Assembly (NCBI GenBank): GCA_964631415.1
Contig: CAZVZC010000015.1
Location: forward strand, 1-39,757
Reading direction: 5' to 3'
Source: an uncultured archaeon
GTDB taxonomy: Archaea; Asgardarchaeota; Thorarchaeia; Thorarchaeales; Thorarchaeaceae
DNA length: 39,757 bases
Part shown: positions 19,043 to 31,367 of the stretch, piece after piece
Layout of the letters: every line of letters begins with the position of its first letter
Position numbering within the stretch: the stretch's first letter is position 1
Notes under the pieces: model-generated
Seen by the model: only the letters and a program-made list of their open reading frames with translations
What the model was told of the DNA's origin: nothing
Databases searched by the model: none
Made by a program: the position numbers and the translations under genes

Positions 19043-19876
19043 CTACAACATGTAACGGATGACGTCATCGAGAATCGCATATATCTGAATACGATCCATG
19101 TCTTTTTTGACGTAGGGCATGGCGTGCTCAAATATCATGGTCCGGTAGGCCGTTGGGTCCACGACTTCCCTTGTCACATCACTGACCACTTTGAGCATCT
19201 CCTCAAGAGCCACTCTCAAGGTCCTGTAGAGCACATTGTAGATGTCAATGGAGATGACCTCGATACCCGCCTCATCAATTGGGACTGCTGCGAGAAAGGG
19301 ATAGGTCTGAATGAGAGGCTGTATCCGTTCTCTGATTCCATCCACAAGTTTCTTTCGCGTCCTCTTGTCGACTTTTACCTCCATGATGGCCCTGAAGAGG
19401 TGGTTATAGACTTCAAGTGAGTCCATTGACTTGCTGGCCACGAGACTGTCATCCGTTTCTTCAAACTGTGCAACCAGTTCGTCGATGAAGTTGGCATAGT
19501 GGGTGAAGCTCTCAGGGTTTCCTTGCCACTCCTTCAGTACTGAAGCTACGTCGGACCCTTCGGGGATCTCGTTGCGCATGAACTCATTCAGCGCGTACTC
19601 TAGGAGGAAACGCATGTGTCCTGTACGAGAGGCCTTGGAAACCGCCATGACGAAGAGAAGATTGTCATTCGCCAACCAGACGTATCTGTTCACCTCTGTG
19701 TCAATTGTCTTCAGAGTTTCGTTGGTGGCCTTGTCTATGAATGTGTGAGTAGCAGAAAGAAAGGGAGCTATCAAATCCATGTCGATGTCTATCCCGGAGT
19801 ATGCCCTCGCGACCAAGTTCCTACCTGTCTCTCGCTCAATCAACCACACTCCATGGATAGAACGTTTGTCTGACAT
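19043..19876 (-). CDS. Longin-like domain protein
   Basis: N-terminal IHGVWLIERETGRNL...DMDLIAPFLSATHTF...LKTI...NLLFVMAV pattern typical of Asgard longin domains; helical C-terminal region. Confidence 0.7.
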   Translation of the reverse strand: MSDKRSIHGVWLIERETGRNLVARAYSGIDIDMDLIAPFLSATHTFIDKATNETLKTIDTEVNRYVWLANDNLLFVMAVSKASRTGHMRFLLEYALNEFMRNEIPEGSDVASVLKEWQGNPESFTHYANFIDELVAQFEETDDSLVASKSMDSLEVYNHLFRAIMEVKVDKRTRKKLVDGIRERIQPLIQTYPFLAAVPIDEAGIEVISIDIYNVLYRTLRVALEEMLKVVSDVTREVVDPTAYRTMIFEHAMPYVKKDMDRIQIYAILDDVIRYML

Positions 19877-19990
19877 GAGGGACCGGAAGTGGAACCGGAA
19901 TCTAAGGAAATAAGCGTATGTCATACTGGGAGATACGCGGGATTCAGCTGGTTCTCAGTCAGACGCGCAAGACACACAATATGCTCAGGG

Positions 19991-23391: not shown

Positions 23392-24741
23392 TCATCCAGA
23401 TGTCACTTGAGCCGACTCGACGACAATCGATGGCGTCACCATGGTTCCAGTCGCCCTCGTATCAGCGCCCACTCTGTGGACCCTCTGCAGAAGGTCGCGC
23501 ATGTTGACACCGACAAGCGTGCTCTTGACAGGATGCTTCACTTCTCCGTCCTTTATGTAGAATCCTTCCATTATCATGGCACTCAAGTCGCCAGTTGTCA
23601 TGTTTGGTCTGTCCCCAGTGTTGCGACATAGGACACCAACTCTGACTTCTGAAACAAGATCGTCAAGCGTTCCTTTCCCAGGAGTGATTATGAAATTGGA
23701 ACTCGCAATGGATGGCGTGCCGGCGTACGAGGGACGACTTGCGTTGCCTGTGTTCTTGATCCGGTCCTTGTTTGCTGTATAGGAGTTGTGTAGAAGACTC
23801 TTCAGGACGCCTCCACTCAGAATCTCAGTGCGCTGTGACGGCACGCCCTCTGCGTCGAACACACGCGATCCGACGCCCCCCTTGAGGACACCGTCATCAA
23901 CTATGTGCAATTCCTCAGAGGCGATTCTAGCTCCGATGGCATCCGAGATGTATGACCGCCCGAACTGCACCTCTTCTGCATTGATGGCTCCAGCGAAGCC
24001 ACCTCCAATCACTGTACTAACAGCAAGAGGAGCCAATATCACAGGCATCACCCCACCCTCGACGGTCTTGGCACCCAGGCAGTGTAGGGCATTCTCCGAT
24101 GATGACCTGCCCACCCATTCCGGATCTATGTCTTTGAGGCGTCGCGAGATCTGGTATTCGTAGCTGGCAGTCTGATCGCCTTCTTCTTTGATCGTGGGGT
24201 AAGTGTACAGGGTTACAGAAGTGGTCTGGTCAGAGAGTGAGATTCCCTGTGAACTGACGATGGCCTTTGTGCCTGACGAAACGCTCAGTTGGGCCTCGAT
24301 GGCGAACTTCTTGCCAGCGAGCACAGCCTTGGCTGAGTCCACAGCTCTGATCACTAGCTCTGCGGCATCGTCTGATTGCATGCTGACAATGGCACGGTCA
24401 TAGAGACCAGTCACTGCGGGGTAGCGCTCCTCTGAGGACGGGAGACTCACGAAGCTAGGGTCGGCGACGGACGCTTTCGCGAGCCCTACAGAGTTCTTGG
24501 CCGCTTCTTCAATGTCTTCATCAAGCAGAGTTGTTACGTAAGCAAAGCCCACACGCTTGCCGATCACTGATCTGATTCCGCACCCTGCATCGCGCCTCTC
24601 CGAAGCACTCTTTATGGCACTGTTCTCAACATCGATTGAGAATGATCTCGCTGAGGCCAGATACACCTCAGCTTGTTCTGCTCCAAGGCGTTCCGCTGTT
24701 TTGACCGCTTTCTCGCCAATCGCCAACAACTGCTGTTTCAC
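23392..24741 (-). CDS. pmbA: TldD/PmbA family protein, PmbA/TldE-type subunit
   Basis: AEVY, GIRSV..KRVGFA, FDAEGVP, TGNA.R, TGDLS; no HExxxH motif. Confidence 0.88.
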   Translation of the reverse strand: MKQQLLAIGEKAVKTAERLGAEQAEVYLASARSFSIDVENSAIKSASERRDAGCGIRSVIGKRVGFAYVTTLLDEDIEEAAKNSVGLAKASVADPSFVSLPSSEERYPAVTGLYDRAIVSMQSDDAAELVIRAVDSAKAVLAGKKFAIEAQLSVSSGTKAIVSSQGISLSDQTTSVTLYTYPTIKEEGDQTASYEYQISRRLKDIDPEWVGRSSSENALHCLGAKTVEGGVMPVILAPLAVSTVIGGGFAGAINAEEVQFGRSYISDAIGARIASEELHIVDDGVLKGGVGSRVFDAEGVPSQRTEILSGGVLKSLLHNSYTANKDRIKNTGNASRPSYAGTPSIASSNFIITPGKGTLDDLVSEVRVGVLCRNTGDRPNMTTGDLSAMIMEGFYIKDGEVKHPVKSTLVGVNMRDLLQRVHRVGADTRATGTMVTPSIVVESAQVTSG

Positions 24742-24742
24742 T

Positions 24743-26128
24743 CTAGATACCTCCTACTGGCACACCACGAATCCGAGCGTGCGGTCCCCCACTGTTGTCG
24801 GGCACCAGCTGCCCATTCTTTCCACATGTACCCGCCTCCATCTCGAAGTCCTTGGCAATCCCATCTATCTTGGCGAGCACGTCTAGGATTTGCCCTGCAA
24901 GAGAAACATCACGCACCATCTGCCCCAATTCCCCCTTCTCAATGAGATAACCGTAACTCGCTTGGAACATGAACTGCCCCTTAGACGGCTCAGTGTAGCC
25001 ATAGTTGAAATCGCATAGCAGCGCCCCTTGCTTGGTATCCGCAATGAGATCTTCCACCTCCCAGTCACCACGTTCCATGAAGGTGTTGCTCATGCGAGGA
25101 ATAGGCTCATACATGAAACTCTGGGCCCTAGCTGCGCCATTGGGTTCCATTCCCAGTCGGCTGGATGACTCAAGACTATGGAGCAGGTCTGTCAGAATGC
25201 CGTTCTTGACAAGATTCCTCTTACGAGTCTTTGTGCCCTCCCAATCGTATTCGAAAGTGCCTCTCTGATTGGCAAGCGTTGGATCGTCGCTCAGGTTGAG
25301 AATCTCCGGGCCCACCTTCGTTCCGACCTTATCTTCAAGGACGGTCGCATGAGCCGGCCAACAATCTGCCTCACATGCATGGCCAAATGCCTCATGAACC
25401 ATGACACCATTCAGTATAGGATCCATGATTACATCATAGACGCCGCCCTTTGCGGCCACTGACGAAAGCAGCTCAACAGCCAGTTTTGAAGACTCCTCTC
25501 CCAGAACCTGCACTTGCTCTGTCTGCATCTGCTCAAAGCCGCCCCTCACGCCGACTGACTTGTAGGCACGCTGTCTGTTGGCACCATCCTTGGCTGTCGC
25601 CATGCAGGTGATCCGTGGCAGAGAGTTCTCTATGTGGACAGCCGTGCCCAAGGAGTTGGCAACATATAGCTCGGTCGACATGTCAGCATATGTTGTTCGG
25701 GTGTTGGAAATCCTCTTATCGAATGCCCGAGTTTGGTCGTCTATCATCTTGGCGAAGCCGACCTTCTCTTCTATTGACACGTCCTGAAAGGGTCGCTTGA
25801 CCTCTAGATGGACACTGTCAGTGAAGGCCTTCCCCTCAATGCTGAACTTAGCAGCCACACGTTCATGTGTGGCAAGCGCCAGCTTGGCGACGGACTCACC
25901 AGTGCGACGCATACCGCTCGGACTGAGGTCGGTGCTCTGACCGAATGCCCAAGCCCCATCAAAAAAGGCCCTTATCCCGGCACCCTTCAGTCGCGACATG
26001 GTCGCTCGCTTTGTGATTCCATCGGTCATCTCAATGTTTGTCGTGATGGTGTTCTCAATACGGACATCAGAGAAAGTGGCCCCAACCCTGATGGCTGCAT
26101 CAATGGCTGCTCTTGCAAGACTCTCCAT
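24743..26128 (-). CDS. tldD: TldD metalloprotease subunit
   Basis: HEAFGHACEAD, YDWEG, PIPRMSNT, GTCGKNGQ, GGPH. Confidence 0.92.
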   Translation of the reverse strand: MESLARAAIDAAIRVGATFSDVRIENTITTNIEMTDGITKRATMSRLKGAGIRAFFDGAWAFGQSTDLSPSGMRRTGESVAKLALATHERVAAKFSIEGKAFTDSVHLEVKRPFQDVSIEEKVGFAKMIDDQTRAFDKRISNTRTTYADMSTELYVANSLGTAVHIENSLPRITCMATAKDGANRQRAYKSVGVRGGFEQMQTEQVQVLGEESSKLAVELLSSVAAKGGVYDVIMDPILNGVMVHEAFGHACEADCWPAHATVLEDKVGTKVGPEILNLSDDPTLANQRGTFEYDWEGTKTRKRNLVKNGILTDLLHSLESSSRLGMEPNGAARAQSFMYEPIPRMSNTFMERGDWEVEDLIADTKQGALLCDFNYGYTEPSKGQFMFQASYGYLIEKGELGQMVRDVSLAGQILDVLAKIDGIAKDFEMEAGTCGKNGQLVPDNSGGPHARIRGVPVGGI

Positions 26129-26319
26129 AATCGGCCGTCCCTGCCAACATAGCGCCATTGACCCGGAATATAACAGATTTGCACACCGCATTCACACCGA
26201 TTGACGAGCAAGAGTCGGCCTCAAACTGGGTTTCCCTGCTAATACCGACGTGATACACGGCCAATTATTCAAGACTGAACCACGGTACAGCTTGAGCCCA
26301 GAGGTCCGGAGGAACACAG

Positions 26320-27873
26320 TTGAACGAGGATCCTTCAGTCCATGCATGTCAAGTGTGCGGAAGCAATCGAGCCACTCATCTCTGTGAGGACTGCGGAGAG
26401 ATACTGTGTCTGGACTGTATGGAAACGAAGTCCAGTGTGCATTATGTGTGCAGTAATTGTCATCATGCGCTAGGGACACCGCGGCCGGGGGAGAAGTTCG
26501 AGAGATGCCCCGAATGTGACTCGAAAGAGCTGAGCCTTGGCAAACGCCTAGAAGAGATCTGTCCGAGATGTCACTCCGCGCGTACGACTCCAATCGAGGA
26601 GAGGAGAAGGGCTCTTGCACAGGACATGCGGCGTGCAATCATGAGCATCCAGTACGGCCACATAAGGCTGAGAGACTTCACGAATAGGCTCACAACAGCG
26701 AAAAGGCTTCTAGTTTCTCTCAGGATGGCCAACTTCCTCCACTATCGGTGGTTGGAAGATAAAATCGAGGACATACAGACTGAGCTTCCGGCCATCAAGA
26801 ACAGGGTTGCCAATCAGGCTGAGATCGTAGCCAAGCAGATGAGCGCTGAAACCAAGGGCTTTCTCGACTATAACACATGGTCAGCAGCTCAGTTCCCCTT
26901 CATAGGGGGAGTAACCAACCGCATAACAGAACTTGGCAATCAGTACAGGCGCAATGTGGATGAGGCTCTTGAGAGTGTACGACTGACAATCTCGGACCTG
27001 GAACAGCAACTGGATGGACTGGACTACTACAAGAAGCAGTTTGCAGGTTTCTACGAAACTGCCGAGCTATCGGTCAACGAACTGCCAGTCTGTGCCTTGC
27101 CTGAGATAAGGATAGCAGGCAGTGACTTCCTGAAAAATGACAAGGCCCTGGGCACGCTCTACATAACGAACAGGAGACTCGTCTTTATAGCTGAGACAGG
27201 TCGGCTACGCAAGAAGACTGACATCGTATTCGACTTCCCTCTCATGTATCTGAAAAGCATTGAAGGGGACGGTCGTCTGAGGAAGAGAGTTGTCCTGAAG
27301 ATGAAGCAGGGCGACGTTAGGCTGTCCTGTAACGAGCAGACAGAGAAAGTGCTGCCAGACTACGTTGAGATCGCCAGGAAGTTTGACAAGTACATGCAAT
27401 CGGATCTTCAGAGGACGAGAAAGCTCGGCCAATCAGATACCACCATCAGCGATGTCAGACTCAAAATCGAGGAGCTTGTCTACTCACTTCTCTCCTCAGG
27501 CGCCGCGGTGAACCAAGGCAGAGGAGCCACACAGGCAATCGGCGCATATCCGAAACAAATGGGGCCATATCCGGGCGTCACCCAGTTTCGAGGTGACTTC
27601 CAGCAGAGCAGCAGTCCCTACTTGCGTGACCGACTGAGAAGGGACCTCGAAGGCATGTTTGAGAACCGAGGACAGCCACATGGACCCGATGGCTCAAACA
27701 GTGGCATGTCCAACAGCGACATGTTGGTCATCAATGATGCGATAAGGGACACTGTGCACCTCTTCAGGAGCGGGCAACTGGTGCCCGAGGACTTCATCAG
27801 GCGATACAAGGGTCTCATGCGTGACTCGTACGACACTAAGAGAAGACTCGAGTCTGCTCCAAGATATGGATAG
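26320..27873 (+). CDS. ESCRT-I-like multidomain protein: B-box/Zn fingers, coiled coil, PH/GRAM(GLUE)-like domain, steadiness box
   Basis: CQVC..ATHLCEDCGEILCLDC B-box-like plus three more CxxC; long helical region; GTLYITNRRLVF PH/GRAM motif; C-terminal INDAIRDTVHLFRSGQL..EDFIRRYKGLMR resembling the Vps23/37 core; adjacent to ESCRT genes. Confidence 0.72.
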   Translation: MNEDPSVHACQVCGSNRATHLCEDCGEILCLDCMETKSSVHYVCSNCHHALGTPRPGEKFERCPECDSKELSLGKRLEEICPRCHSARTTPIEERRRALAQDMRRAIMSIQYGHIRLRDFTNRLTTAKRLLVSLRMANFLHYRWLEDKIEDIQTELPAIKNRVANQAEIVAKQMSAETKGFLDYNTWSAAQFPFIGGVTNRITELGNQYRRNVDEALESVRLTISDLEQQLDGLDYYKKQFAGFYETAELSVNELPVCALPEIRIAGSDFLKNDKALGTLYITNRRLVFIAETGRLRKKTDIVFDFPLMYLKSIEGDGRLRKRVVLKMKQGDVRLSCNEQTEKVLPDYVEIARKFDKYMQSDLQRTRKLGQSDTTISDVRLKIEELVYSLLSSGAAVNQGRGATQAIGAYPKQMGPYPGVTQFRGDFQQSSSPYLRDRLRRDLEGMFENRGQPHGPDGSNSGMSNSDMLVINDAIRDTVHLFRSGQLVPEDFIRRYKGLMRDSYDTKRRLESAPRYG

Positions 27874-27888: not shown

Positions 27889-28512
27889 TTAGACGCCTAG
27901 CTCCTTCTCAAGCGACTTGATAGCTTCCTCGAGCTCCTCGGCCTCGGTCACTGGTCGCGTGCCTGAAGGCGCGCCAGCAACCCCTGCAGCTGCATCTATC
28001 TCCTCCATAGCAGCTGCCATGTCCTCTGAGGTCACCTGACTCTCTTTTGTCGAAACGAGAGCCTCCTCTGATATGCCGCTCTCAATCTCGAACTCCTCAA
28101 GCCTGTGAGTAATCTCATCCAGATTCTGAATAACCTTCGTCGAGTCTGTTGCCTCGCTCAACGTGCCAAGTATCTTCGCAACCTGTTCAACTGCTACTCC
28201 AGTCTTAGCGGTAGTCTGGGCCCGAGTGATGTGAGCGAGCACCCTCAGGAGATGAAGACGTGAACGATCAACTGACAGAGCAAATCTCCTGAAGCGGATC
28301 ATCTCCGCCGCGTAGGTCCTGTATGCGTCCGTGTGACCCTCCTTTCGGGCACGAACTGCTCGGGCCTTAGTATCGCGCTCCTCTTTCTCAAGCCTGTTCC
28401 TCTCACGCTCAAGCTGCTTAGTCAGTATTCTGAGCTGGCTTGTGGCCTCTGTGATATCGGGCTTCCTACGACCCCACGACATCGCCTTCTTGATTGTACC
28501 CAATGGGCTCAC
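27889..28512 (-). CDS. ESCRT-III Snf7-family protein, Vps2/24/46 (CHMP1-3-like) class
   Basis: LRILTKQLERERNRLEKEE..TK.....ARKEG...AYRTYA.EMIR; basic N-half and acidic C-half; C-terminal amphipathic helix EELEEAIKSLEKEL (MIM1-like). Confidence 0.88.
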   Translation of the reverse strand: MSPLGTIKKAMSWGRRKPDITEATSQLRILTKQLERERNRLEKEERDTKARAVRARKEGHTDAYRTYAAEMIRFRRFALSVDRSRLHLLRVLAHITRAQTTAKTGVAVEQVAKILGTLSEATDSTKVIQNLDEITHRLEEFEIESGISEEALVSTKESQVTSEDMAAAMEEIDAAAGVAGAPSGTRPVTEAEELEEAIKSLEKELGV

Positions 28513-28543
28513 CGCATCCAGGGATAGACTCCCAAGTCGATTT

Positions 28544-28587
28544 CGAAGGTTGTCCGTTTAAACCTTCGCAGAAGGCAACGAACCTTC
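28544..28587. promoter_or_regulatory. Tandem inverted repeats overlapping a TATA-like box in the ESCRT-III/vps4 divergent promoter
   Basis: CGAAGGTT-N9-AACCTTCG (28544-28568) spans TTTAAA at 28557-28562; GAAGG-N7-CCTTC at 28571-28587. Confidence 0.45.
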
Positions 28588-28656
28588 ACCAAGAATGAGT
28601 CCGAGCAACCTCGATCCAGACCACTAACACACAAACTCTTAACCGCTGAAGAGCAA

Positions 28657-29892
28657 ATGGCACGCGAACACGAAATGTCAGGATCAGACGATGACAGGCT
28701 GGACTTGGGACTTAAGGCTCTCCTGGAGAAGGCCATTGACCTTGATGACAGAGGCATGAAGAAGGAGGCCTGCCAATACTACCTCAAGGCCAGCAAGATC
28801 CTCATCAAGCTCTCCAATTCGACCTCACTGCCATCACTCCGCAAGCACTACTTTGACCGAGCTCAGGAGTGTGTGGACCGCGTGAAGCGCATCTCTGGAG
28901 CAAAGGGAGTCGCTGGTCCACCAGACAGTCTCGGAAGACTGGTGACACAACCAAGAGAGAAAACCGTGGCACGGTCGGCATCAGAGGAAACCGGGGAAGT
29001 CGACGAGGACACAAAGAGGCTTCGTGAGATGACTGCGGACACCATCATAACTGAACGGCCCGATGTCAAGATGTCGGAAGTCGCGGGGCTAGAGGAGGCC
29101 AAGCAGGCAATCCAAGAGGCTGTGGTCGCCCCGATGAAACACCCGGAGCTGTTCAAGGGAAAGGCAAGACAGCCATGGAGGGGGATCCTGTTCTATGGAC
29201 CAGCAGGCTGTGGTAAGACTCTCATAGCAAAGGCTGTTGCCTCCGAGGTGAATGCGACTTTCTTCAACGTGTCAGCTGGGAACATAGTGAGCAAGTGGTT
29301 GGGAGAGTCTGAGAAGCTTGTCATGACACTGTTCGAGATGGCAAGGAAGAATCAACCATCGATCATCTTCGTGGACGAACTTGACTCTGTGGGTGTTTCC
29401 AGATCCGATCACGATGTTGGAGGCGAGCGACGACTCAAGACCCAACTGCTGACTGAGCTTCAGGGAGTGGCCAGCGACCCGAAGGAACGAGTCACAGTCA
29501 TTGGTGCCACCAACCTACCATGGCAACTTGATTTTGCCCTTAGGTCTAGGTTTGAGAAGAGGATCCACATTCCCCTCCCGGGAAAGGCATCACGACGAAC
29601 GGTGTTTGAGCTGCATATGGAGGATGTGGAGGTCTCCCACGATGTTGACTTCGACGAACTCGCAGACCTGACACAGGGCTACAGTGGTCGGGACATCAGC
29701 ATTGTGTGCAGGGAAGCAGCCATGGAGCCTATTAGAGATCTCCAGAGCACTGGAGAAATGGACCGCGATGGCCCGATTGAAAACCTCCGACCCGTTTCAA
29801 GACAGGATTTCCTCCGAGCCGTTGACAGCATCGGACCCGGTACCTCTCCCGAGGATGTGAAGAAGTATGTCGATTGGGCGGAGGCAACATAG
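28657..29892 (+). CDS. vps4: Vps4 AAA+ ATPase with N-terminal MIT domain
   Basis: MIT (LLEKAIDLD..G...EAC.YY.KA...Y.DRA); GPAGCGKT, SKWLGESEK pore loop, IIFVDELDS, RRLKTQLL, ATNLPW.LD.ALR.RFEKR. Confidence 0.93.
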   Translation: MAREHEMSGSDDDRLDLGLKALLEKAIDLDDRGMKKEACQYYLKASKILIKLSNSTSLPSLRKHYFDRAQECVDRVKRISGAKGVAGPPDSLGRLVTQPREKTVARSASEETGEVDEDTKRLREMTADTIITERPDVKMSEVAGLEEAKQAIQEAVVAPMKHPELFKGKARQPWRGILFYGPAGCGKTLIAKAVASEVNATFFNVSAGNIVSKWLGESEKLVMTLFEMARKNQPSIIFVDELDSVGVSRSDHDVGGERRLKTQLLTELQGVASDPKERVTVIGATNLPWQLDFALRSRFEKRIHIPLPGKASRRTVFELHMEDVEVSHDVDFDELADLTQGYSGRDISIVCREAAMEPIRDLQSTGEMDRDGPIENLRPVSRQDFLRAVDSIGPGTSPEDVKKYVDWAEAT

Positions 29893-29895
29893 TCC

Positions 29896-30624
29896 GTGAG
29901 TGTGAAGGAACGACGAAGGCAGAAGGAGCGACCCAAGGCTCGAAGTGAGTCCAAGTTTCAGGAAGGTTCAGTGGACACTGAAGCAAACATCGAAAGCGTC
30001 GTCACCTCCGAACAGATCGAAACACCTCTAGAAACGCTCGAAGCAACTCCAGTTGTTGAGTCTGAGCCGCAGGTCTCGGAGCCAATCACCGAGGCAACTG
30101 CAGAGGCTCTCGTGCCACAGGTCCTTCTGCCGCGCTGGGGTGACAACAGAGAGTCACAATGGATGTACCAGATTCCTCCCAGAGATGAGGACAGAAACAT
30201 GTGGATGGATGAATGGGCCGACTTCGTGATCCAGTGGACCCAGTCAGAAGGCCTGCACGTCCTCTCTGTTTCAGCCTTCATCAAGGAACCACCTTTCAGA
30301 GACATGCTTGGAAAAGTGGAAGCTTTCAGACTGATTGGAAACACGCTGGTCGAGAAGGGAGTTGCGGAATGGCTTGATGACAAGAAGCGCCAACTCCGAG
30401 TATACTGGAGACCCCTTGAGGAATGGGCCGACATGATATATGGGTGGGCTATTGAAACGGGCAATCTACACCTCGATGTCAAGTCCATAATCATACAGGA
30501 AGCGGGCAAGGAGTTTGCCACTCTCCCTGAGAAAGACCTGCATCAAGTAATGGAGATGCTTGTCGACAGAAGGGTGGCAGAATGGGTGGATAGGAAGAAG
30601 GGGGCAATACTAATCCGAGTGTGA
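29896..30624 (+). CDS. vps25: ESCRT-II subunit Vps25 homolog with acidic N-terminal extension
   Basis: W...WADFV..W, PF, LVEKG.AEW....LRVYWRPLEEWADMIY.W, EF..L....L...L.....AE tandem winged helices; directly downstream of vps4. Confidence 0.85.
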   Translation: MSVKERRRQKERPKARSESKFQEGSVDTEANIESVVTSEQIETPLETLEATPVVESEPQVSEPITEATAEALVPQVLLPRWGDNRESQWMYQIPPRDEDRNMWMDEWADFVIQWTQSEGLHVLSVSAFIKEPPFRDMLGKVEAFRLIGNTLVEKGVAEWLDDKKRQLRVYWRPLEEWADMIYGWAIETGNLHLDVKSIIIQEAGKEFATLPEKDLHQVMEMLVDRRVAEWVDRKKGAILIRV

Positions 30625-30629
30625 TTCGC

Positions 30630-31367
30630 CTATACCGAGCCGTCCCTGCCTCGAAGTCCCGGGAAGTAATATCGTCCCCCGGTCGAGAAACGGATGTCAG
30701 CGACAGCCATGCCTGAGTCAACTAGGCTAGACAGGACTTGGCGCGCGTGATCCTCAGACCACTTCAGCTGTATCATGAGTTCCTCTATCGAAACTTGCCC
30801 CTTTGTAGCGGCTATGTTGATGACGTCAGCTTGGTCTCTGCGCAGCTCAAGCGGACGCAGCTCGACAACCTTTACCCCGCCCCTCAGTGTTCTGATGCCA
30901 GGGATGAGACCATGTTCTGCAACACGGTTCACGGCCTCAATCACGTCGTTGTAGCTCACGGACTTGAGTTCTGGGAGAAGGCGCACTACTTCGACTATGA
31001 GTTCCGCCAGTCCCATGAGGCCCTTAGATGCATTTGCCGTCGCAACATCAAGCACGGCCAACCCGATATGGTCGTAGTATTCCTCGGTCGTCATGCCCTC
31101 AATCGAAGCCATTCCACTCTTGCCGTGAAGGCCCAGCATAACCGACGCGTCCGGGAATGACTCAAGCACTCTCTCTTGGTCGATGAAGTTGACAGGATCG
31201 ATGCCCATGCGTCGCAGGTCTTCGATACCGCCCTTGACCTCTGCAAGAAGCGCATCTGATTCCCTCTGATATGACCGTACGTCGACGGCGCCCATGTCGT
31301 ACATTTTCTTGAGCTGGTCCAGCGTCGCAATCGACGCATAGAGCTCGGATTGGAGTCGCTCACTCAT
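30630..31367 (-). CDS. Fusion of Vps28 N-terminal (ESCRT-I) domain and EAP30/Vps22-36 (ESCRT-II) winged helices
   Basis: N-terminus SELYASIATLDQLKKMY..G.V....Y....LL; C-terminus YYDHIGLAVLDV...GLMGLAEL...VSYNDVIEAV...PLELRRDQ..VI..A...G.VS...L.WS..ARQVL..LV..G....D...YYFP. Confidence 0.82.
   Translation of the reverse strand: MSERLQSELYASIATLDQLKKMYDMGAVDVRSYQRESDALLAEVKGGIEDLRRMGIDPVNFIDQERVLESFPDASVMLGLHGKSGMASIEGMTTEEYYDHIGLAVLDVATANASKGLMGLAELIVEVVRLLPELKSVSYNDVIEAVNRVAEHGLIPGIRTLRGGVKVVELRPLELRRDQADVINIAATKGQVSIEELMIQLKWSEDHARQVLSSLVDSGMAVADIRFSTGGRYYFPGLRGRDGSV

Follow-up and report, generated by a model that had tools for sequence, protein, structure and literature searches.

A Thorarchaeial Zinc-Finger, PH-Domain and Steadiness-Box Protein of the Asgard Znr_CC_PH_SB Family as a Probable Upstream ESCRT Adaptor

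Overview

[quoted passage not shown] Its product, P0001, belongs to Znr_CC_PH_SB (asCOG cog.011556), a family specific to Asgard archaea, as the orthologue from Thorarchaeia, and it is best explained, with good probability, as an upstream, ESCRT-I-like adaptor that has Vps36-like features and is joined to ESCRT-II. In support of this reading, domain identities, conservation and gene context were observed directly and a contact between two steadiness-box (SB) elements was predicted, whereas lipid binding and ligand recognition are roles that we infer. Makarova et al. (2024, mBio; PMC10936438) have already published this family together with its architecture and a functional interpretation; the observation made in an initial annotation of the window is correct, its interpretation is borne out in large part, and the protein is not new as a family.

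Gene and Family Identity

According to the ORF listing and its translation, the gene (26320..27873, + strand) consists of 517 open codons from a TTG start and encodes a protein of 517 aa. The TTG start is plausible because homologues begin at an equivalent position (MTED.../MNED...). Close homologues number 168, are about 500-530 aa in length, come from Thorarchaeota metagenome-assembled genomes and are all annotated as hypothetical. An exhaustive HMMER search yielded 93 cluster representatives, among them Asgard proteins of 480-1171 aa that are 20-30% identical to the window protein and align over residues 9-393, and Asgard homologues of 624-742 aa match it with E-values of about 1e-25 in single-sequence searches and about 1e-120 in profile searches. 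At E<=1e-5, the family profile was found in 194 of 201 sampled Asgard genomes and in 83 of the 85 that are of high quality.

Makarova et al. (2024; PMC10936438) described Znr_CC_PH_SB (also given as Znr_PH_CC_SB) as an Asgard-specific family, cog.011556, whose members unite zinc ribbons and a coiled coil with a PH domain and a steadiness box. In their account, the family is absent from eukaryotes, is likely ancestral in Asgardarchaeota and is predicted to be an ESCRT-I component, the PH domain of which would be membrane-associated by analogy to Vps36. Lu et al. likewise included cog.011556 among the steadiness/Vps23-box families. No experimental study of the family was found in the literature searched.

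Orthologues in two genomes of the same genus (G122:C56:4977-6425 and G110:C28:1742-3190) each carry one in-frame TAG. This could point to a shared pseudogene, an assembly error or stop-codon recoding.

Domain Architecture

Profile searches, fold searches and two structure models all support the domain reading; one of these models is an AlphaFold2 model of the full protein (mean predicted local distance difference test score, pLDDT, of 83.7) built on a family alignment of 40 sequences with identities down to 18%. The elements listed in the initial annotation, namely zinc fingers, helical region, PH domain, linker and SB, all occur at the coordinates given there.

Residues 1-91 are modelled as small, beta-rich zinc modules. 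They contain the six CxxC pairs noted previously (C10/C13, C22/C25, C30/C33, C44/C47, C63/C66 and C81/C84), and across the family alignment eight of these 12 cysteines, which extend from C10 to C84, are invariant and the other four are at least 90% conserved, which is far beyond chance. The cysteine pattern indicates three putative tetra-cysteine zinc sites, the first two B-box-like in spacing and the third a zinc ribbon. The B-box-like module with two zinc sites (C10, C13, C22, C25, C30, C33, C44 and C47; 26347..26460, + strand) was assigned from cysteine conservation and Pfam matches; its spacing, read from the sequence, is C-x2-C-x8-C-x2-C-x4-C-x2-C-x10-C-x2-C. In the window protein alone, Pfam places an ANCHR-like B-box here below threshold (E 0.006), and in a scan of the 40 family members zf-B_box was matched in 16 and the ANCHR-like B-box in 10. 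Because of this cysteine spacing and these matches, the first two sites look B-box-like rather than like two plain ribbons, which refines the published description. The zinc ribbon that follows (C63, C66, C81 and C84; 26506..26571, + strand) has all four cysteines invariant in the 40 sequences, strands modelled at residues 71-80 and 89-91, and weak matches to RNA-polymerase and TFIIB-type ribbons in profile searches.

B-box-type Pfam matches ahead of a coiled coil might also point to a TRIM-like or E3-like regulator that acts in a ubiquitin-like modification pathway and not as a membrane adaptor, and the family profile weakly matches RING/PHD cross-brace structures in the PDB (RNF4, E 0.0011). 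However, Pfam detected no RING domain in the window protein, in which the B-box stays below the curated cut-off (17 bits versus 27), and there is no SPRY or other TRIM C-terminal domain, so that the term TRIM-like used in the initial annotation holds as a loose analogy only. The genome, 85% complete, yielded neither ubiquitin nor UEV, and Thorarchaeota have been reported to be seemingly without ubiquitin (Hatano et al., 2022; PMC9192718). Such a regulator would, moreover, leave the PH domain, the SB and the ESCRT context unexplained. A TRIM-like or E3-like role is unlikely, and we regard it as very improbable for this protein. The proposal that the zinc fingers replace UEV/NZF as cargo sensors would be compatible with the genome having yielded neither UEV nor ubiquitin.

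The zinc modules are followed by a long helical, putatively coiled-coil region (helices 92-136, 144-177 and 189-241; 26593..27042, + strand), modelled by AlphaFold2 with pLDDT 88-97. A coiled coil of about 165 aa had been anticipated; the long helical region is indeed there, in the form of three helices, but its length is about 150 aa. Whole-model Foldseek matches to DH-PH RhoGEFs, at a root-mean-square deviation (rmsd) near 20 A, were rejected, being due to a helical bundle beside a PH domain and not to homology.

The middle domain (27085..27378, + strand) certainly has a PH fold. This is a domain type mainly associated with eukaryotic membrane proteins. The GTLYITNRRLVF motif, which begins at residue 278 (nt 27151) and on which the PH fold had originally been proposed, forms strands 2-3 of a sandwich of seven strands (256-336) that is completed by a C-terminal helix (339-353). 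Modelled alone, the domain (256-353) reached a pLDDT of 90.5, and VIA-align of this confident model gave Z-scores up to 12.5, with the MTMR2 PH-GRAM domain first (Z 12.5, rmsd 3.0 over 106 residues), followed by the EAP45 GLUE domain (Z 11.4) and Lam6 (Z 11.3). GLUE domains were also among the top structural matches in Foldseek (2hth_B, E 2e-4; 2cay, E 6e-4). At the sequence level, the window protein alone matches GRAM (E 0.12) and bPH_3 (E 0.15) below the Pfam threshold, and over the 40 family members Pfam recorded bPH_3 in 15, GRAM in three and Vps36 GLUE in two. The PH domain falls within the group of GRAM, GLUE and bacterial PH domains, and the scores do not separate these three types.

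Two basic patches, both present as previously noted, lie in loops of this domain: GRLRKK (294-299), of the form GxxRKK, in the beta3-beta4 loop, and GRLRKR (318-323) in the beta5-beta6 loop. Lysine or arginine is conserved across the family at K322 (97%) and at R286, K298 and R323 (90% each), followed by R319, R297 and K299. The sequence conservation of these basic residues would fit a membrane-binding face, and the PH domain may target inositol lipids, as suggested in the initial annotation.

The GLUE likeness raises the possibility that the protein is a functional equivalent of Vps36, that is, a third arm of ESCRT-II with a GLUE-like PH domain and zinc fingers, held non-covalently to the Vps22-like and Vps25-like subunits by an SB-SB contact, and not an analogue of Vps23. 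Among PDB sequences, the PH profile matches the GLUE domain of yeast Vps36 best (E 0.015), ahead of bacterial PH domains; the full family profile also reaches the Vps36 GLUE domain (E 0.039), and the GLUE match of two family members is to Pfam Vps36_ESCRT-II. In addition, a relative, P0141 (601 aa; L062:7986-9797, + strand; genome G053), has the B-box-like, helical and PH parts joined to Vps22-type winged helices that replace the SB. P0141 matches EAP30 with 44.7 bits and Vps36 GLUE in Pfam with E 1.8e-4, and its layout parallels that of eukaryotic Vps36; genome G044 of the same Asgard family also has a reading frame of comparable length (608 aa). Nevertheless, GRAM-type and many other PH domains score as well as GLUE or better, bPH_3 being the commonest Pfam match, the winged helices of P0141 are nearer to Vps22/SNF8 (5.5e-6) than to Vps36 (3.4e-3), and the C-terminal element of the window protein is a Vps23-type SB, a hallmark of ESCRT-I. 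Equivalence to Vps36 is a minority possibility, to which we give about one chance in a handful or slightly better; it overlaps with the ESCRT-I-like adaptor preferred here and differs from it mainly in which eukaryotic subunit corresponds.

Beyond the PH domain, the AlphaFold2 model shows helices at 363-371 and 377-399 (27406..27516, + strand), which form a possible stalk-like segment, and family profile positions 368-506 align to the stalk and headpiece of yeast Vps23 (2p22_A). They lead into a Gly/Pro/Gln-rich linker (400-459; 27517..27696, + strand) with a short helix at 433-447. This linker had been noted earlier, and residues 398-459 are indeed of low confidence or disordered in the model; pLDDT is below 50 at 398-432 and 445-459, and the linker varies in length among homologues.

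The C-terminus forms a helical hairpin (460-483/489-512; 27697..27855, + strand), confidently modelled over residues 460-512 (pLDDT 90-96) and in agreement with the SB hairpin expected by the initial annotation. A PDB search with the family profile returned the yeast Vps23 core (2p22_A, E 8.3e-6; 2f66_A, E 3.6e-5) over about 57 ungapped residues, and human TSG101 (6vme_B) with E 4.5e-3. F492, R494, R495, L499 and R501 are invariant. Pfam Vps23_core was matched in seven of the 40 family members; among 17 Thorarchaeial C-termini, it was matched weakly in ten (best E 0.0014) and Mod_r/Vps37 in four.

Two other SB-related sequences were observed in the same genome. One is a free-standing SB ORF of up to 110 aa on contig 21 (L076:1465-1797, + strand), which contains the motif GTISTEEFEKRYK, matches the SB part of the profile with E 3.3e-7 and is located away from the ESCRT cluster. 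The other, on contig 75 (L077:354-1568, + strand), encodes a 404-aa protein in which an N-terminal globular domain and a coiled coil precede an SB-like hairpin at the C-terminus (profile E 4.6e-4); it is a further candidate for an adaptor with an SB.

ESCRT Gene Neighborhood

Immediately downstream of P0001, and separated from its stop codon by 15 bp, lies a convergent ESCRT-III gene of the CHMP1/2/3-like class (27889..28512, - strand; Pfam Snf7 E 5.6e-10), the best PDB sequence matches of which are CHMP1B (2.4e-7), CHMP2A (2e-6) and CHMP3 (9e-6). A second Snf7 gene of the genome sits on another contig. The cluster continues with a Vps4 ATPase with MIT, AAA and Vps4_C domains by Pfam (28657..29892, + strand), a Vps25-like ESCRT-II subunit (29896..30624, + strand; Pfam ESCRT-II E 2.5e-15 over residues 91-190) and a Vps22-like ESCRT-II subunit (30630..31367, - strand; EAP30 E 2.4e-14; SNF8 E 1.7e-14 on residues 90-238).

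Synteny was compared in 40 loci from about 20 Asgard families, annotated with iterated hidden Markov models. The gene order of the window is identical in a Thorarchaeial locus with 58% identity and, among 12 Thorarchaeial loci that represent different genera, 11 repeat it and one is rearranged. About three quarters of the 40 Asgard loci have an adjoining, convergent ESCRT-III gene. The linkage of homologues to ESCRT genes, the loss of which the initial annotation would have taken as evidence against itself, holds strongly across these loci.

Several further features of the window were recorded. In the Vps25-like protein, about 85 aa of N-terminal extension (29896-30150, + strand) precede the winged-helix region; this extension is acidic and probably disordered, with many Thr, Ser, Glu and Val residues. 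An 82-aa ORF between the Snf7 and Vps4 genes (28509-28757, - strand) was considered as a small SB gene and rejected; it is Ser/Cys/Arg-rich and antisense to the start of Vps4. Directly upstream of P0001 and divergent from it is a tandem TldD/PmbA metallopeptidase pair (23392-26191, - strand), the position of which is kept in the syntenic Thorarchaeial locus L003. A 293-aa ORF without a Pfam match (19043-19924, - strand) adjoins the TFIIB gene, and a 277-aa gene, also Pfam-less, occupies the same position in L003.

Predicted Partner of the Steadiness Box

The N-terminus of the Vps22-like protein (about residues 3-52, nt 31212-31361) is a helical hairpin with the invariant motif ASIATLDQLKK. It weakly resembles the Vps28 N-terminus, which points to a candidate ESCRT-I-type element fused to an ESCRT-II subunit. 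Asgard Vps22 proteins (cog.002769) have been described as fused to an SB (PMC10936438). In complex prediction, the SB of P0001 and this hairpin scored 0.70 in three of three runs, compared with 0.03 for the best of three controls; the partner had a pLDDT of 78, and the runs share at least 97% of their contacts. Calibration of the tool put 58 of 80 solved complexes at the scoring mark or above it, and two of 110 mismatched pairs; these counts are rough here, where our own alignments were used. The predicted interface consists of the invariant ASIATLD..LKK helix on the Vps22-like side and the conserved F492, M500 and R501 on the SB side. The SB hairpin is thus predicted, from these models, to pair with the Vps28-N-like hairpin of the Vps22-like neighbor.

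The conserved adjacency to ESCRT-III allows another reading, in which P0001 is a direct recruiter comparable to CdvA: its PH domain would anchor it to the membrane and it would recruit the adjacent ESCRT-III directly, for example in division or scission, bypassing ESCRT-II, with the SB serving as a CdvA-like element or in self-assembly. Across Asgard lineages, ESCRT-III is the conserved neighbor, convergent and often nearly abutting, and the pairing persists where Vps4, Vps25 and Vps22 are not found within 8 kb; furthermore, one family member weakly matches Pfam CdvA, and the SB and the CdvA hairpin have been reported as homologous (PMC10936438; Lu et al.). Yet the analysis revealed neither a winged-helix-binding peptide nor any other element for binding ESCRT-III in the protein, and the complex model favors the N-terminal hairpin of the Vps22-like protein as the partner. 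Convergent genes are not co-transcribed, and their adjacency is therefore weaker evidence than an operon would be. Direct recruitment of ESCRT-III appears unlikely to us, yet it deserves consideration.

Proposed Mechanism

As an ESCRT-I-like adaptor joined to ESCRT-II, P0001 would be seated on an anionic membrane by its PH domain via the conserved basic beta3-beta4 and beta5-beta6 loops. Its zinc modules would bind a ligand, probably one other than ubiquitin in this lineage, given that the genome yielded neither ubiquitin nor UEV. The C-terminal hairpin may pack against the Vps28-N-like hairpin fused to the neighboring Vps22-like subunit, by which the membrane adaptor would be coupled directly to ESCRT-II (Vps22-like plus Vps25-like). 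ESCRT-II might then nucleate ESCRT-III, which would be remodelled by Vps4.

Several points weigh against this mechanism. The initial annotation had aligned the C-terminus without gaps to the Tsg101/Vps23 SB; this stands at the level of the family profile but not for the window protein, whose own C-terminus falls below the Pfam Vps23_core threshold. An SB profile built from Thorarchaeia only, which is too shallow, finds Vps23 in the PDB at E 0.38-1.1 among chance matches. Because both fall short, the SB assignment rests on the wider family profile. On the partner side, a whole-genome Pfam search for Vps23_core, VPS28 and UEV returned a single match, that of VPS28 to the Vps22-like N-terminus with E 0.036, and the PDB matches of this N-terminus to Vps28 are weak as well (E 0.35-0.9). 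Homology of the two hairpins could not be demonstrated at this depth, since hhalign of the Thorarchaeial SB profile and the Vps22-like N-terminal profile gave a probability of 1.3% and no meaningful alignment. The complex score is a prediction and may stem from solved Vps23-Vps28 cores that the model has learned. At least two further proteins with an SB are encoded in the genome, and they could be the true partners. According to two-hybrid data, SB proteins that stand alone may interact with Vps28 (PMC9192718). With regard to gene context, the most conserved neighbor of the family is ESCRT-III, not Vps22, and a few loci (L063, L067, L068 and L005) have no ESCRT gene nearby. Finally, the lipid, ligand and interaction roles of the family are inferences.

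A broader scenario, which we put forward as speculative and rather improbable, is that ESCRT-I and ESCRT-II have collapsed in Thorarchaeia into one ubiquitin-independent complex. The Zn-PH-SB protein would dock by an SB-SB contact on the Vps28N-Vps22 fusion and act as both Vps23 and Vps36, and the fusion of zinc, helical and PH parts to Vps22-type winged helices in another Asgard family would mark a route to eukaryotic Vps36.

The ESCRT machinery of Asgard archaea is the closest prokaryotic model for the origin of eukaryotic membrane remodelling, and its upstream end, which recognizes membrane or cargo, is the least understood part. Being near-universal in sampled Asgard genomes, located beside ESCRT-III and equipped with a PH domain, Znr_CC_PH_SB offers a good experimental entry to ESCRT membrane recruitment, especially in ubiquitin-less lineages. 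Beyond the published family, this study contributes one well-documented orthologue. It also refines the picture at three testable points, which are the predicted partner of the SB, the basic loops that are conserved, and the fusion with a Vps36-like layout.

Comparison with Known Systems

With TRIM/B-box proteins and the B-box of ANCHR (ZFYVE19), P0001 shares the B-box-like cysteine spacing and the helical region that follows it. It is, however, without a RING, a TRIM C-terminal domain or a FYVE domain, and the likeness is confined to one small zinc module with sub-threshold scores.

CdvA of TACK archaea is an adaptor, as P0001 probably is; each has a coiled coil and a hairpin, that of CdvA being reported as related to the SB, and each is encoded beside ESCRT-III and Vps4. 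CdvA binds membrane; its PRC barrel and its C-terminal peptide that binds the CdvB winged helix are not seen in the window protein.

Similar to Vps36/EAP45, P0001 has a PH fold for which GLUE is among the best sequence and structure matches, and it carries zinc fingers and the PH domain on one polypeptide, as does yeast Vps36. Different from Vps36, it does not have the two C-terminal winged-helix (EAP30) domains, which are present only in the fused relative P0141, and its zinc modules are N-terminal B-box and ribbon types instead of an NZF inserted in the PH domain.

In common with Vps23/TSG101, P0001 has a C-terminal SB hairpin after helical and linker segments, and alignment of the family profile to the Vps23 core needs no gaps. 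The packing predicted on the Vps28-N-like hairpin would resemble the headpiece, in which the N-terminal hairpin of Vps28 takes part. No UEV appeared in Pfam scans, which covered the protein, the family and the genome, and zinc fingers and a PH domain occupy the N-terminal position; the long helices of the window protein precede the PH domain rather than directly preceding the SB.

The closest known system is Znr_CC_PH_SB itself. The Lokiarchaeum GC14_75 member, listed with about 650 aa in the published table (PMC10936438), was compared by this listed length only, and homologues of about 620-740 aa from other Asgard lineages match residues 9-393 and the SB. The Thorarchaeial form, with 517 aa, has a shorter linker, and the first two of the "three Zn ribbons" given for the N-terminus in PMC10936438 look B-box-like here. 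The domain set and order, the ESCRT neighborhoods, the restriction to Asgard archaea and the predicted role are the same, and nothing essential differs.

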